Source of the DNA: an uncultured Acidobacteriota bacterium
GTDB taxonomy: Bacteria > Acidobacteriota > Vicinamibacteria > Vicinamibacterales > CAVVIG01
Assembly (NCBI GenBank): GCA_963814975.1
Contig: CAWFFB010000020.1
Span: forward strand, 29,202-93,201
Length of the DNA stretch: 64,000 bases
Direction of reading: 5' to 3'
Shown: one piece after another, positions 2,118 through 58,580 of the stretch
How the letters are laid out: each line of letters starts with the position of its first letter
Position numbering within the stretch: the first letter of the stretch is position 1
The notes under the pieces: generated by a model
Database searches by the model: none
Seen by the model: only the letters and a program-made list of their open reading frames with translations
Told to the model about the DNA's origin: nothing
Position numbers and translations under genes: made by a program

Positions 2118-3473
2118 TCATAGGAGCACGAGCGGATCGAAGCCGAGCTCGACGGAGTCGATTGCCCTCGCGACTGAGCTGGGCCGTCCTTCTTCGGACT
2201 GGTTTTCCCACAGGTTGACGTCGTACGGCACGGCGAGCCGCTCACCCATCCGATCGACGATGACGCGGACCTGCGGGCGGTGCGGATCGGGCGCATAGAT
2301 CTTCACCACCACCGCCAGTTCGCCCGTATCGAGCCGTACCGCGTTTCCCGCGGGGTAGATGCCCACCAACTGGACGAACCTGCGGACCAGGTGTCGATCG
2401 AACTGCAGTCCATCATTCCGCTTCAAGACTTCGAGGACCCGATCGCTCGGGAAGGACTGCTGGTAGCTTCGCTGCGATCGCATGGCGTCGTAGACATCGG
2501 CAATGCTGCAGAGCATCGTGCCGACGTTGAGCGTCGGCCGCTTCGCGGCGGTGGGGTAGCCGGTGCCGTCAATCCGCAGGTGGTGCTCGAAGGCCACGAC
2601 CGGCACCAGCGCCGGAATGTCTGGTGTGGCGCGGAGAATCTCCGCCCCGTCCACGGTGTGACGCTTCATGATGCTGAACTCGGCGTCCGTCAGTTTATCC
2701 GGCTTGTTGAGAACTTCGAGCGGCGTGCGTACCTTCCCGATGTCGTGCATGAGCGCGGCGAGCCCGAACTCGCGCAGCAGCGATCCGTCGATCGCGAGTG
2801 CCCGGGCCTGTCCCATGGTCAGAATCGACACGTTCACCATGTGTGTGAACGTGTAGTTGTCGTAGTTCTTCAGCGTGGTCAGCGCGAGCAGGGCCGTCCG
2901 ATTCTGGGATACCGCCTGGGCGAGACCGTCAACCATCGTGCGCGCAACGGTCGCATCAGGCTGCCCTTCGGTCCGCGCGCTGTCCCACACCGATTCGGCC
3001 GCCGACACCGCTTCGGTGTACAGCCGCTTGAACGCCGCCATGTCGACCGAGCCCTCGACTTTCTGCTGGACGGTCACGCGGCCGACGCGGATATGCGGCA
3101 GCGCGGGGAACGCCGGGAACTCGCCGTCGGGCCGCAGCTCGAGGGTTGTCACCGCTTCCACGAACTTCGCGATCTCCTCCTCCGTCACGCCCCGGTCGAT
3201 CGTGACGCGTTCGACGCCGAGCAGCTTCAGTCGACGGCTGATCGCGCCGAGGTTCTCCGCTTTGGAGATCGGCGTGTCGTCGACGATGATTTCGTCGCCG
3301 ACAATGCCGATCACGATGGCGGGCTCGAGCGCGTGGAGCGGTTGCACCGCGGCGGCCAGCGCGGCCATGTTCCGCACGATGATCGGATGGCCCTTCGAGT
3401 ACAGCTGGGCCGATCGCACGCTCGCGGCAAGGCGGCGGAGCAGTTCGTCGGCGAGATCCGTGCGCGGCGTCAT
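2118..3473 (-). CDS. HD-GYP domain protein (putative c-di-GMP phosphodiesterase)
   Basis: Motifs YTFTH, LMHDIGK, HHLRIDGTGYP (variant of HHExxDGxGYP) and IADVYDAM, plus a typical GIYPxG...LDTGELAVV C-terminal domain. Confidence 0.92.
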   Translation of the reverse strand: MTPRTDLADELLRRLAASVRSAQLYSKGHPIIVRNMAALAAAVQPLHALEPAIVIGIVGDEIIVDDTPISKAENLGAISRRLKLLGVERVTIDRGVTEEEIAKFVEAVTTLELRPDGEFPAFPALPHIRVGRVTVQQKVEGSVDMAAFKRLYTEAVSAAESVWDSARTEGQPDATVARTMVDGLAQAVSQNRTALLALTTLKNYDNYTFTHMVNVSILTMGQARALAIDGSLLREFGLAALMHDIGKVRTPLEVLNKPDKLTDAEFSIMKRHTVDGAEILRATPDIPALVPVVAFEHHLRIDGTGYPTAAKRPTLNVGTMLCSIADVYDAMRSQRSYQQSFPSDRVLEVLKRNDGLQFDRHLVRRFVQLVGIYPAGNAVRLDTGELAVVVKIYAPDPHRPQVRVIVDRMGERLAVPYDVNLWENQSEEGRPSSVARAIDSVELGFDPLVLL

Positions 3474-11034: not shown

Positions 11035-11107
11035 ACCAGAAGACACGAAGCGTACGACACACTGAGGTCCTTGAACAGGTTGGCACCAAGCGCGTGTTCT
11101 TCGTGGT
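11035..11107. repeat. Intergenic imperfect palindrome, CACGAAG family
   Basis: ACCAGAAGACACG (11035-11047) versus CGTGTTCTTCGTGGT (11093-11107). Confidence 0.7.
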
Positions 11108-11124
11108 CTTGTGACTTGTTTGTC

Positions 11125-12192
11125 ATGCTGATCTTGGGCATCGAAACATCGTGCGATGAAACCGCGGCCGCCGTGGTCGAGGAGACCGGAGACGCCGCCC
11201 GGCCGTGGGCTATCCGGTCGAATGTCGTCGCATCGCAGGTGCCCATTCATCGCGAGTGGGGCGGCGTCGTCCCGGAACTCGCCTCGCGCCAGCATGTCCG
11301 AGACATCTGTGGCGTCGCCGCCCGCGCGCTCCAGGACGCCGGGACCACCTGGTCGGACCTCGGTGCCGTCGCCGTCACGCAAGGTCCGGGCCTCGTCGGC
11401 TCGCTGCTTGTCGGCGTGTCGTTTGCGAAGGCCGCGGCGGCTGCCACCGGCCTGCCGCTCGTCGCGGTCCATCATCTGGCCGGCCACGTCGAATCGCTGG
11501 TCCTCCAGAATGGTGAGTTGCCGTACCCCTCGGTGGTGCTGGTCGTGTCTGGCGGTCACACCAGCCTGTATCTCGTCGATGAACCTGGTCGCTATCAACT
11601 CCTCAGCCGCACACGCGACGATGCGGCGGGGGAGGCCTACGACAAGGTGGCGAAGTTGCTCGGCCTTGGGTATCCCGGTGGCCCGGTCATCGATCGCCTC
11701 GCCCGGACGGGGAACGACCGTGCGATCCGGTTGCCGACGACTCGATTGACCCATCCAGACCGGAATGCGCCGACGCTGAAAGGGGATCTCGATTTCAGCT
11801 TCAGCGGCCTGAAGACCGCGGTCCTGCGGCACGTGCGCACTCAGCAGCAGCTGCGGGGGGCTGCGGTGCCGCTGTTCACAGAGCACGAGATCGCTGACAT
11901 CTGCGCCAGTTTCCAGCGCGTGGTCATCGCGGCGCTCGTCGAGCGCACCTTTGATGCGGCGCGCCGACATCACGCGAAGAGCATCGGCGTCGCCGGCGGA
12001 GTGTCCGCAAACAGCCGTCTCCGGGAAGAGTTCGCGGCGCGCGGCAAGGCGCGTGAGATGCCGACGTTCGTGCCGAGCTTGCAGCTGTCTACCGATAATG
12101 CAGCGATGATTGCGGCCGCGGGGCTGCGCAAGCTGCGCGCCGGCGTGACGGCGCCGTTCGATCTCAACGCGGATGCAGGGCTGGTGCTCTAA
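11125..12192 (+). CDS. tsaD: tRNA N6-adenosine threonylcarbamoyltransferase subunit TsaD
   Basis: Motifs LGIETSCDET, GGVVPELASRQH, GPGLVGSL, HHLAGH, VSGGHT, DDAAGEAYDK, FSFSGLKT and TDNAAMI. Confidence 0.97.
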   Translation: MLILGIETSCDETAAAVVEETGDAARPWAIRSNVVASQVPIHREWGGVVPELASRQHVRDICGVAARALQDAGTTWSDLGAVAVTQGPGLVGSLLVGVSFAKAAAAATGLPLVAVHHLAGHVESLVLQNGELPYPSVVLVVSGGHTSLYLVDEPGRYQLLSRTRDDAAGEAYDKVAKLLGLGYPGGPVIDRLARTGNDRAIRLPTTRLTHPDRNAPTLKGDLDFSFSGLKTAVLRHVRTQQQLRGAAVPLFTEHEIADICASFQRVVIAALVERTFDAARRHHAKSIGVAGGVSANSRLREEFAARGKAREMPTFVPSLQLSTDNAAMIAAAGLRKLRAGVTAPFDLNADAGLVL

Positions 12193-12301
12193 GGCGCGAA
12201 AGGTGCTTAAGGTGCTAGGGGTGCGTATGGTGCTAAGGTGCTTGGGGTGTTTGGGTGCTTGGGGTGCTGGGGTGCTTGAGGTGCTCGGGCGCTTAGGTGC
12301 C
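12193..12301 (+). repeat. Array of 13 degenerate 8-9 bp units (GGTGCTnn(n)), left arm of an inverted pair
   Basis: GG(T/C)G cores start at 12193, 12202, 12211, 12220, 12229, 12237, 12246, 12254, 12263, 12271, 12280, 12288 and 12296. Confidence 0.9.
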
Positions 12302-12335
12302 AAAGTGCGGGCGTTATGTGCTTCGGTGAGTCGGT

Positions 12336-12705
12336 TTAGTTATCTGGGCTATTCCTGAGATATCGAATCAGGTGCGTAACCGCGGCGATTGCTCGATTAT
12401 AGAGAGGTTCTAGATCCCGAACCGTGTCTTGACTCCAGTATCTGCGAACTGCGCCATCCCGCAGGTGGTCGCGGAGCTCGAGCAGAGAGCCGCGAGCAAC
12501 ACTGGCGTACTGGGCGAACTCACGATGCCGATAGCGAACCAAATCCTTCGGCGATATTCCGAGTGACTGAGCTCGCATCGCGAACCTGATCGCGAAATCT
12601 GCGATCATGAATCGCAGGTCCTTGGGCGGTGATTGCATGCACCCTCTGGCGCAACTCGTCGCTAAGCTGCCAGACAATGAGATCTTCGACGCGGCGAGCT
12701 CCCAT
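12336..12705 (-). CDS. Four-helix-bundle protein (TIGR02436 / 23S rRNA IVS-protein family), one extra base near 12538
   Basis: MGARRVEDLIVWQLSDEL...FRDQVRDASSVTRNIAEGFG joins RYRHREFAQYASVARGSLLEL...LIRYL after removing one T (GGT T CGC). The EDLxVWQ, NIAEGxGR and ARGSLxE motifs are typical of the family. Confidence 0.88.
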
Positions 12706-12759
12706 TCGCGCCGGATCGAGCATCCACTGTGCCAGTACATTTCCGATCCAGCCTCTCGT

Positions 12760-12830
12760 GCGCCCGAAGCCCCGAAGCACTCAAAGCCCCGAAGCCCCCA
12801 AGCACCCGAAGCACCCAAGCACCTAAGCAC
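12760..12830 (-). repeat. Array of about 9 degenerate 7-9 bp units (nnAGCACC), right arm, inverted relative to 12193-12301
   Basis: GC(A/C/G)C(C/T) cores at 12760, 12769, 12777, 12786, 12794, 12801, 12810, 12818 and 12826. Confidence 0.88.
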
Positions 12831-12850
12831 CTTTACCCCCTAGCCACCCT

Positions 12851-13279
12851 ATGCTTGTGCATACCGACTACCTCTGGTTCAACACCAAGAAGCGGCAGGA
12901 ATTCATCCGCATCACCGACGAAGTGGCCGCGGTCGTCAGCAAGAGCGGCGTCACGGACGGGACCGTGCTGGTGTCCGCCATGCACATCACCTCCGGCGTG
13001 TACGTCAATGACTGGGAGGATGGACTGATCCACGACTTCCAGACCTGGCTCGAGACACTCGCGCCGGCGGGCCTCAATTATCGGCATCATCAGACAGGCG
13101 AGGACAACGCCGATGCGCACCTCAAACGGACGATCATGGGCCATCAGGTCGTCTTGCCCATAACCAGCGGTAAGCTCGATCTCGGGCCGTGGGAGCAGGT
13201 GTTCTACGCGGAATTCGACGGCCAGCGCAAGAAGCGGGTCGTGGTCAAGGTGATGGGCATCTCGGGCCTTGAAACATGA
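12851..13279 (+). CDS. yjbQ: YjbQ / UPF0047 family protein
   Basis: Motifs [28 protein letters not shown] and [18 protein letters not shown]. Confidence 0.92.
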
Positions 13280-28182: not shown

Positions 28183-28243
28183 CGTTCTGCGTTCTGCGTT
28201 CTGCGTTCTCCGTTCGGCGTTCTCCGTTCGGCGTTCGGCGTTT
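28183..28243 (+). repeat. Heptamer tandem array CGTT(CTG/CTC/CGG) x9
   Basis: Units at 28183, 28190, 28197, 28204, 28211, 28218, 28225, 28232 and 28239. Confidence 0.9.
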
Positions 28244-28306
28244 GCGTGCACGAAGGCTGAACGAAGGGCGCCGCACGTCGCACGGAAAAGTACTATACTG
28301 AGAGTG

Positions 28307-37816: not shown

Positions 37817-37922
37817 CTGATCTTCGAATCATCTCGTCATTGAGTGGCCGATTCAACTATCAATGATCCGCTGTCCAAACGCTCGTAATGACCCAAATGA
37901 CCCAGTGACCAGATGACGACCG

Positions 37923-55767: not shown

Positions 55768-55855
55768 GATTGCAGATTTCAGAATGCAGATTGCATTTCA
55801 GAATTGCCGACAATTTGCAATACAATCTGCACTCTGAAATCAACAATCTGCAATC
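55768..55855. repeat. AT-rich inverted heptamer-periodic element
   Basis: GATTGCAGATT (55768) and AATCTGCAATC (55845) are perfect inverted arms. TTCAGAATGCAGATTG (55778) and CAATCTGCACTCTGAA (55823) differ by one mismatch. Confidence 0.88.
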
Positions 55856-55867
55856 TGATGGGTCCCC

Positions 55868-58504: not shown

Positions 58505-58580
58505 CTGATCCCAGGCAATCTGAAATCCCACACCTGAAATCTGGAAAACCAGACTTTCAGACTTCAGGTTTCAGACGTGA
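58505..58580. repeat. Inverted periodic element (CTGAAA/TTTCAG)
   Basis: CTGAAATC, CTGAAATC, CTGG versus CCAGA, CTTTCAGA, CTTCAGG, TTTCAGA between divergent genes. Confidence 0.7.

Follow-up and report, generated by a model that had tools for sequence, protein, structure and literature searches.

Periodic inverted repeats around a four-helix-bundle gene between tsaD and yjbQ of an uncultured Acidobacteriota bacterium, and a possible link of this gene family to dispersed short-period arrays

Why should a small minus-strand gene lie in the spacer of a plus-strand operon, framed by two long arrays of the same short repeat in opposite orientations? The question is raised by positions 12199 to 12834 of a 64,000-nucleotide stretch of DNA (the window) from a metagenome-assembled genome of the Vicinamibacterales (Acidobacteriota; 6.27 Mb, 64.5% G+C; here G000), where a gene of the four-helix-bundle (FHB) family PF05635 separates tsaD from yjbQ. 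Proteins of this family, also called S23p, came to light with the first rRNA intervening sequences (IVSs) and were crystallized in 2006, and their function is still a puzzle. The answer that we favor, with a probability of roughly 0.55, is that the element is an old, decaying IVS-type cassette of a genome-wide two-part system in which the FHB protein would act on cognate periodic repeats. Below, G-numbers denote the genomes and L-numbers the loci that were compared, and C-numbers denote contigs of G000.

The element between tsaD and yjbQ

The left arm of the element starts at the end of tsaD (11071 to 12192, plus strand; Pfam TsaD, 5.3e-90; stop codon TAA at 12190 to 12192), and the first GGTGCT unit already lies within the last codons of that gene. 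Direct reading gave about 13 to 14 units of the form GGTGC(T)NN(N), with a period of 8/9 (17), at 12183 to 12310; this count takes in the 1-mismatch variants GGCGCG, GGTGCG, GGTGTT, GGCGCT, and GGTGCC, and toward 12334 the array degenerates. Tandem Repeats Finder (TRF) reported the same arm as 11.7 copies of period 9 (12183 to 12285) and as 5.8 copies of period 17 (12202 to 12300; score, 98). The right arm (12763 to 12834) reads as the left arm in reverse complement, with 8 to 9 AGCACC or AGCCCC units; TRF described it by period 8 with 8.2 copies (12764 to 12831) and by period 25 (score, 89). This array ends at 12831, 19 nt ahead of the yjbQ ATG at 12851. Pfam matches place yjbQ (UPF0047; 12851 to 13279, plus strand; 1.8e-37) in a row of plus-strand neighbors made up of an IF-2B family gene, tsaD, yjbQ, and a NUDIX gene. 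A preliminary description of the locus, made from the sequence, had counted 13 GGTGCT-type units after the tsaD stop codon and about 9 AGCACC-type units ending about 20 nt before yjbQ, with about 460 nt between the arms that held a single minus-strand gene among plus-strand neighbors; direct reading, TRF, and Pfam bear out this picture.

The two arms are complementary over most of their length. The outermost perfect inverted repeat, of 11 bp (AAAGGTGCTTA at 12199 to 12209 and TAAGCACCTTT at 12824 to 12834), was used to set the outer bounds of the element. Further in, a repeat search aligned 12229 to 12292 with 12760 to 12823 as ungapped inverted arms (64 nt, 75% complementary), and a gapped alignment gave 74 Watson-Crick pairs between the arms. 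The inverted-repeat score of the locus was 29.5, compared to 14.7 at the 99th percentile of 240 shifted controls and a maximum of 18 in either control set. That the arms could form a long stem, as had been proposed at the outset, agrees with the predicted folds of both RNA strands, in which the arms were paired with z scores of −7.3 (operon strand) and −6.6 relative to dinucleotide shuffles. Terminal inverted repeats that form a long stem around an open reading frame (ORF), a mark of IVSs as well as of transposable elements of the miniature inverted-repeat type (MITEs) and foldback elements, are thus present. An Rfam scan of 11800 to 13200 at an E value of ≤1 returned no RNA family, and scans of the locus for sigma-70 promoters and intrinsic terminators gave no matches. 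The window sequence is present only in soil and rhizosphere DNA runs of low depth (2 to 4×). The locus is real and not an artifact.

By comparison with an intact ortholog in genome G003, the enclosed gene (12336 to 12705, minus strand) starts with an ATG at 12705 to 12703 (MGARRVEDL..) and stops at 12338 to 12336. Its N-terminal half, within 12520 to 12780, matched profile positions 1 to 53 of PF05635 with 36.9 bits (Pfam cutoff, 33.8); its C-terminal half, in another frame within 12336 to 12830, matched positions 52 to 101 with 20.8 bits. The two halves together cover the profile over its whole length, and the initial assignment of the gene to PF05635/TIGR02436 is thereby upheld. The frames are split by one extra base at 12537/12538, a +1 frameshift that reads GGT-T-CGC on the minus strand and GGT CGC in the G003 ortholog; the gene consequently has no intact reading frame, and the ortholog L007 has an intact ORF of 165 amino acids (aa). 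The preliminary description had taken the frameshift for a read error. Because Logan contigs from two different rhizosphere samples cover the site and carry the identical sequence (contig depth is 2 to 4×, and one of the two samples may be the source of the assembly), the frameshift is judged to be probably real and the gene probably a pseudogene. The intact G003 ortholog aligned to PDB 2GSC, the XCC0516 protein of Xanthomonas campestris, at 8.7e-06, and XCC0516 is the closest solved structure to the window subfamily. The only gene of the cassette would encode a helical bundle of about 122 aa without a known catalytic fold; no candidate enzyme that could move the element turned up, and no systematic search for one was made.

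A candidate promoter of this gene, identified by consensus match only, is a sigma-54-like −24/−12 motif (GGCACAGTGGATGC, preceded by T; 12720 to 12733, minus strand), which is located 14 nt upstream of the ATG, inside the loop and downstream of the 5′ arm of the gene. Of 108 family loci, 19 had the motif GGCA[CT]-N5-NTGC at a distance of 27 to 69 nt upstream of the start codon, compared to an expected rate of about 0.0075 per upstream interval, or about 0.8 in all 108 loci. The loci with the motif include those of the window, of G003, and of 10 other near relatives; by locus number, it was noted, besides the window, in L035 to L049, L081, L221, L223, L226, L227, L236, L241, and L248. The gene rpoN is present in G000 (C7:161740-162213). 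If the motif is a real promoter, the FHB mRNA would start inside the loop and would lack the 5′ arm; both arms, and with them a substrate of RNase III, would then occur only in host transcripts that read through.

Recurrence of the layout, history of the site, and dispersed arrays

Two further PF05635 genes of G000 likewise have one inverted array arm on each side. Their units differ from the GGTGC of the window gene, being AAGTCTC/TGAGACT for the gene on contig C17 and of the CAGTTGA/CTGTCAC types for that on contig C1. The three FHB proteins are very divergent from each other. Across the order, inverted periodic arms were found at 37 of 40 PF05635 loci from 23 Vicinamibacterales genomes (the highest-scoring loci among the matches listed in an order-wide search) but at only 2 of 80 shifted controls. 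Hence, the flanks of other PF05635 genes, which the preliminary description had singled out as a place to look for inverted arrays, were positive both within G000 and in the order. Among relatives of the window subfamily, 47 of 66 loci exceeded the control 99th percentile, including 16 of the 18 nearest. The orientation of the gene is another matter. The phrase "antisense within an operon," applied earlier to this locus, does not state a rule, since only 21 of 58 relatives were antisense between co-oriented genes, while 12 were sense, 20 had convergent flanks, and 5 had divergent flanks; a fixed antisense orientation was rejected.

Ordinary small genes of G000 differ from this layout in that cutA and eutN have a complete hairpin in each flank, versus one arm per side for FHB genes. 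Larger cargo between inverted arrays was also considered and rejected, as the array pairs 280 to 460 nt apart enclose cutA, eutN, and the start of a dnaE2-like gene, which are flanked by separate complete hairpins. Around cutA and eutN/ccmL (C12:155292-155765 and C17:44100-44572), an inverted-array hairpin occupies both flanking spacers, and every gap of the operon-like stretches around them holds a hairpin. The 5′ arm was G+T-rich in 45 of 47 cassettes of the window subfamily, versus only 29 of 55 gene-less hairpins of G000; such arm "chirality" was set aside as an orientation signal, because an inverted repeat reads alike from both strands, and no conclusion was drawn from it.

The history of the tsaD-yjbQ site can be followed in relatives. 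Adjacency of the two genes is kept in about 21 of them, with gaps of 0 to 150 nt where the cassette is missing, and in several the genes overlap or lie ≤40 nt apart. Other relatives have spacer arrays or hairpins of the units AAATGACC, TTCACCAA, GGACTGG, AGCACCC, or CAGGCTG. An orthologous FHB gene is found at the same junction, in the same antisense orientation, in three other lineages (L035, which is the G003 locus; L036; and L038). The arms of these cassettes are made of GGTGC or mixed GGTGC/GGTTC units, and the proteins are 52 to 78% identical to the window copy in two halves, versus 79 to 82% for tsaD. In G001, a genome of the same genus with a tsaD 97% identical to that of G000, tsaD and yjbQ are 108 nt apart, this spacer contains CTTCAGA arrays but no gene, and the two genomes have nothing in common between the stop and start codons. 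The junction is thus polymorphic in the manner by which MITEs and foldback elements are recognized, being filled in G000, G003, L036, and L038 and replaced in G001. An empty junction in a close relative, which the preliminary description had named as something to look for, was found insofar as G001 lacks the cassette, but its spacer, with the CTTCAGA arrays, is not truly empty. The most economical reading of these sequences is that the cassette was ancestral at the junction and was lost or overwritten in G001. In contigs of other soil organisms that align at window positions 12850 to 12863, the conserved yjbQ start is joined to different upstream sequences, among them the heptamer arrays TGCAGAATTCAGAATTCA and TCAGAACGCAGCAG; the junction is therefore variable in the community.

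Homologs of similar closeness that reside at unrelated sites (L037 and L039 to L052) have arms with the core GGTNC (GGTGC, GGTTC, GGTCC, or CGTTC), and the arm units of more distant Bacteroidota relatives are GTTGTTC, GATTGTT, or GTTATTGG. Over 82 armed loci, protein similarity was correlated with the sharing of arm 6-mers (Mantel r = 0.36, P ≤ 5e-4), a signal to which base composition differences between phyla contribute. At least 20% of arm 6-mers were common in 34% of closely related pairs, compared to 1% of distant pairs. By these sequence comparisons, the arms follow the gene and not the site. In one of the homologs at a different site (L037; JBGPJH010000054.1, positions 2501 to 3100), the FHB gene lies beside, not inside, a complete GGTGC/GCACC hairpin; the identity of this homolog to the window gene is 64%/55% in the two halves, versus 70%/55% for the same-site ortholog L035.

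To the preliminary description the arrays had seemed special to the cassette. A whole-genome TRF search of G000 returned 426 arrays with a period of 7 to 9 and at least 3.5 copies, 213 of them by strict criteria, and 210 of these 213 lie outside FHB arms, so that about 210 similar arrays in the genome are gene-less. As in the repeat class known as LSSR or STRR, they consist of head-to-tail units of 5 to 11 nt in intergenic DNA at many loci. The main families are AAGTCTC (65 arrays), AATCTGC (36), AAATCTG (27), and AAGTCTG (26). With at most 1 mismatch, 53 inverted pairs were detected, 45 of which had a gap of ≤134 nt and are gene-less hairpins; a looser match (≤2 mismatches, adjacent arrays, gap of ≤150 nt) gave 55 gene-less hairpins. 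These typically have 4 to 5 units per arm and loops unrelated in sequence, and many other arrays are single and unpaired. Gene-less arrays of the GGTGC type are located at C6:5954, C10:191676 (hairpin), C21:10898, C30:55001, and C35:338680 (hairpin). In the ATTGCAG family, an irregular 8-nt unit, GCAGATTGAATTTCAGATTG, recurs near the hairpin loop at 8 loci when ≤1 mismatch is allowed and at 16 when ≤2 are (for example, C14:478004, C17:44150, C22:86117, C23:2048, and C35:372535), which suggests copying from one source and not independent slippage. Arms of the ATTGCAG type are absent from all three FHB genes of G000.

To relate arrays to FHB genes, array density was sampled in 31 genomes of the order, by means of 20-kb segments that were not centered on FHB genes. 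The 15 genomes without a PF05635 match yielded 1 strict array in 1.12 Mb, whereas the 16 genomes with 2 to 14 FHB genes yielded 88 in 1.20 Mb (Mann-Whitney P = 2e-5; FHB count versus density, Spearman rho = 0.87; no phylogenetic correction). The contrast had the same direction within families f1, f3, f4, and f7. Likewise, all 11 genomes with arrays at the tsaD-yjbQ junction were FHB positive, and none of 5 FHB-less genomes had arrays there. Moreover, the units themselves corresponded: 15 of the 88 gene-less arrays (17%) had an exact match to an arm k-mer of an FHB gene from their own genome, compared to 2.0% for the arms of other genomes (permutation P of ~2e-4), in a comparison that sampled only about a quarter of the FHB genes of those genomes. 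In G000 itself, 95 of the 210 gene-less arrays matched arms of its three FHB genes (C17, 67; C1, 16; C20, 12).

The window subfamily and its own unit gave a parallel result. The pattern GGTGC-N2–4-GGTGC-N2–4-GGTGC had a median of 34 matches in 13 relatives with a subfamily member (≥42% identity) and of 1 in 28 relatives without one (P = 0.004; P = 0.016 without G000 and G003), and a reversed control pattern (CGTGG-N2–4, three times) showed no correlation. G003, with the intact ortholog and a genome that is 64% complete, had 281 matches; G000, with the frameshifted gene, had 35; and G001, whose only relative has an internal stop, had 0. The reversed control pattern had 130 matches in G002 and 0 to 20 in each of the other 40 genomes, which points to an abundant CGTGG/CCACG array family of G002's own; this genome has a 54%-identical member of the window FHB subfamily and no GGTGC arrays. 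Altogether, the suggestion that the arrays are protein binding sites or termini of a mobile unit has gained indirect support from array density, own-genome units, the Mantel test, and the GGTGC counts.

Other arrays in the window are gene-less as well: CGTTCTG in 9.4 copies at 28183 to 28247, ATGACCCAG in 3.6 copies at 37888 to 37917, a GATTGCA/CAATCTG hairpin at 55768 to 55857, and CAGACTT in 3.6 copies at 58550 to 58576. Elsewhere in G000, at C11:36590-36710, a DnaE2-like (PHP domain) ORF contains a hairpin of the AAGTCTC type, apparently in frame. Its translation would be ...IIGAELTLTGNLKSQVSSPKK...SDFRLETSDFRWTLPVLCESQEGYRNL, and the repeat is seemingly translated through.

Weighing the explanations

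The sequence comparisons establish the anatomy of the cassette, the generality of its layout, its orthology and loss at this site, and the associations at the level of genomes. In the reading favored here, the cassette was inherited at tsaD-yjbQ from an ancestor common to at least three other lineages, and in the sister species a hairpin built from a different repeat family has taken over the whole spacer. FHB genes reside in hairpins of their own repeat type, and gene-less arrays and hairpins of the same types, in numbers from dozens to hundreds, are dispersed in intergenic spacers, in FHB-encoding genomes only. The mechanism that we infer beyond this concerns how the protein would bind the repeats, which kind of nucleic acid it would bind, how arrays would spread, cleavage by RNase III, and mobility. 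The FHB protein, whose crystallized relative XCC0516 is a pentamer, may recognize its cognate arrays by their periodic units, with about one unit for each protomer; the units of its own would then be GGGAATC for XCC0516 and GGTGCNNN for the intact G003 ortholog. Such binding would promote the maintenance and spread of the cognate arrays, and the gene-less hairpins would be non-autonomous derivatives, as MITEs and foldback elements are relative to an autonomous copy. A host transcript across the hairpin would form a long stem that RNase III could cut, as in 23S rRNA IVSs, and this would be a consequence and not the selected function. In the tsaD-yjbQ operon, the cut would fall between two cistrons that were ancestrally tightly coupled. 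An IVS at the level of mRNA is in this sense no more than a plausible analogy.

Several observations weigh against this reading. No binding, cleavage, or movement was observed, the cassette encodes no enzyme, and no direct repeat that would indicate a target-site duplication lies outside the termini (flanks, TAAGGCGCG and ACCCCCTAG). At the window locus, the gene is broken whereas the arms are intact. In G000, array families outnumber FHB genes, and 115 of the 210 gene-less arrays, including the ATTGCAG and GAACG families, match no FHB arm exactly. The comparisons between genomes lack a correction for phylogeny, and the contrasts within families number only four. G086 and G085 are FHB positive, yet they had 0 arrays in the sample; G025 has 47 GGTGC matches and no subfamily member at an E value of ≤1e-8; and G002, G008, and G034 have a subfamily member and few GGTGC arrays. 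Finally, the correlation of FHB genes with arrays would be expected also if the gene-less arrays were decayed cassettes on which no protein acts in trans.

This last alternative, in which gene-less arrays are the remains of FHB cassettes whose arms outlive their genes and on which the protein is inactive, has the window locus, with its decayed gene and intact arms, as an example, and it predicts the within-genome matching of units along with the correlation. We nonetheless consider it quite improbable. It would need about 70 gene losses for each surviving gene in G000, where no intermediate loops with gene remnants were seen; 45 of the 53 inverted pairs have gaps of ≤134 nt; many arrays are single and unpaired; and the irregular units held in common suggest that gene-less forms were themselves copied. 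Alternatively, the arrays may be independent intergenic repeats that arise by slippage and act as hairpins like repetitive extragenic palindromes, with FHB genes preferentially inserting or surviving in the loops and no functional link between the two. The hundreds of gene-less arrays beside 3 FHB genes, the excess of unit families over genes, and the unrelated loops of gene-less hairpins would follow readily from this, and rRNA IVSs likewise replace the tetraloops of existing helices (PMC4990558). However, independent repeats should not be nearly absent from the 15 FHB-less genomes of the same order, share units with the FHB arms of their own genome, have counterparts in arms that track the protein lineage across different sites, or, as GGTGC arrays do, track the GGTGC-type subfamily, and we regard this explanation as unlikely.

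An explanation at the level of RNA, to which we would also give a low chance, makes the stem an RNase III site and the element an IVS of the mRNA, by which the expression of tsaD and yjbQ would be uncoupled or tuned, with the gene as incidental cargo. It is favored by the strong stem predicted on the operon strand (z = −7.3), by the overlap or close spacing (≤40 nt) of tsaD and yjbQ in relatives without the insert, by the demonstrated RNase III excision of the homologous Coxiella IVS, and by the sigma-54-like promoter in the loop, which would leave both arms only in read-through transcripts. On the other hand, complementarity is neutral with regard to strand: G·U and A·C mismatches in the arms of the window locus number 1 versus 1, and of 37 gene-less hairpins flanked by co-oriented genes, 17 folded better as the sense strand and 20 as the antisense strand (P = 0.65). 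The absence of a preference for the transcribed strand argues against RNA pairing as what selection maintains, and by this evidence from sequence, pairing or copying at the DNA level fits better than selection on one transcript. In addition, relatives differ in whether the junction is empty, has arrays only, or is filled, and the genome-level link with FHB genes would be left unexplained. Membership in a diversity-generating retroelement (DGR) as an Avd-type accessory gene was considered in view of the homology between PF05635 and Avd (PMC10053308). None of the three FHB genes has a reverse transcriptase (RT) in its vicinity, the only RT (RVT_1) of G000 being on contig C16, and no pair of template and variable repeats is present; on these grounds the DGR explanation was rejected, and we find it scarcely credible.

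The reading of the locus as a decaying IVS-type cassette of a two-part system can be carried further, although we do so tentatively and at less than even odds. FHB pentamers in general would be sequence-specific readers of short periodic repeats, and protein and repeats together would form a transposase-free, self-propagating system. The hairpin with the gene would be its autonomous form, and dispersed 7- to 9-nt arrays, including the heptamers of Xanthomonas, cyanobacteria, Beggiatoaceae, and Bacteroidota, would be non-autonomous progeny; the 23S rRNA IVSs would be copies that landed in rRNA. If this were true, FHB subfamilies would specify repeat families, and loss of a gene would freeze or erode its arrays. 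Two old puzzles, the function of PF05635/S23p and the existence of genomes rich in intergenic tandem repeats of about 7 nt, might then have one answer. The link is testable, as in a single order of Acidobacteriota arrays are present where FHB genes are, array density goes with the number of these genes, and the unit type goes with their subfamily. Recognition of such cassettes would also account for many of the odd spacers, interrupted operons, and repeats inserted in frame that are met in annotation. The wider interest of the locus is this quantitative link of a gene family to dispersed short-period repeats; the cassette itself is a decaying IVS-type element at a non-rRNA site.

Comparison with known systems

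Literature searches, in which subscription-only papers were not covered, found no paper that describes an FHB gene and its arrays as a system, in line with what the preliminary description had said of the architecture. Its parts have clear counterparts. In the 23S rRNA IVS of Coxiella burnetii, a stem of 28 bp encloses an S23p (PF05635) ORF, and next to the ORF are GACAGAT heptamers, three in tandem, in a number that differs from strain to strain; the stem is cut internally by RNase III, the ORF is in decay, and earlier proposals saw in the IVS a selfish or mobile element (Warrier et al. 2016, PMC4990558). The window element resembles the ORF-bearing IVSs of C. burnetii and Leptospira in having the same family in the loop, terminal inverted repeats, and a decaying ORF. 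Unlike these IVSs, which are inserted in a helix of 23S rRNA, it is placed between tsaD and yjbQ, in the spacer of a protein-coding operon, with the gene antisense to the host transcript; its arms, of about 70 to 110 nt, consist wholly of 8- to 9-nt arrays, and its genome has hundreds of gene-less arrays. Excision by RNase III has been seen in 23S IVSs, whereas the window element is known from DNA alone.

With MITEs and foldback elements, the element has in common long inverted termini of short tandem repeats, few gene-bearing copies next to many gene-less hairpins, and irregular units that recur among copies. It differs from them in having neither a transposase fold nor a target-site duplication, in that transposition was not observed, and in that the arms differ among the gene-bearing copies of one genome. 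The bAvd protein of DGRs (PDB 4DWL) has a homologous, pentameric four-helix-bundle fold and binds nucleic acid and RT, whereas the window gene has no adjacent RT or template and variable repeats. TRAP and other ring-shaped readers combine an oligomeric ring protein with evenly spaced short repeats; their fold is different, and the likeness is one of pure analogy. By that analogy, cassette arms of typically 4 to 5 or more units may be compared to the pentameric FHB protein.

Heptamer arrays have been described in several other bacteria. Xanthomonas campestris has 186 GGGAATC arrays, with 70 to 75 convergent pairs among them, which lie mostly by stop and start codons and were read as G-quadruplexes, and Nostoc has GGGGA(C/T)T arrays (Rehm 2015, PMC4692102). 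TAACTGA repeats are distributed sporadically in Beggiatoaceae, Cyanobacteria, and Bacteroidetes, and for these "no mechanism is evident" (MacGregor 2015, PMC4679880). Like such heptamer or LSSR arrays, including the cyanobacterial STRR, the arrays of G000 are tandem repeats of 7 to 9 nt in spacers by stop and start codons, many of them in inverted pairs; the depletion between divergent genes and the sporadic phylogenetic distribution are further likenesses. For the published arrays, G-quadruplexes or RNA-binding regulators have been proposed and PF05635 is unmentioned, whereas the arrays described here are tied to FHB genes. In X. campestris, array #15 of the published list (Xcc 622956-622983; S2 File, Table A) is placed between bccP (XCC0517) and XCC0516, where it extends over the annotated start of the latter, a position on which that paper makes no comment (PMC4692102). 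XCC0516 (PDB 2GSC, five chains) was described as "five four-helix bundles" (Lin 2006, as cited in PMC10053308). Thus, the crystallized XCC0516 is a neighbor of the heptamer array that dominates its genome and is an independent published instance of the association.

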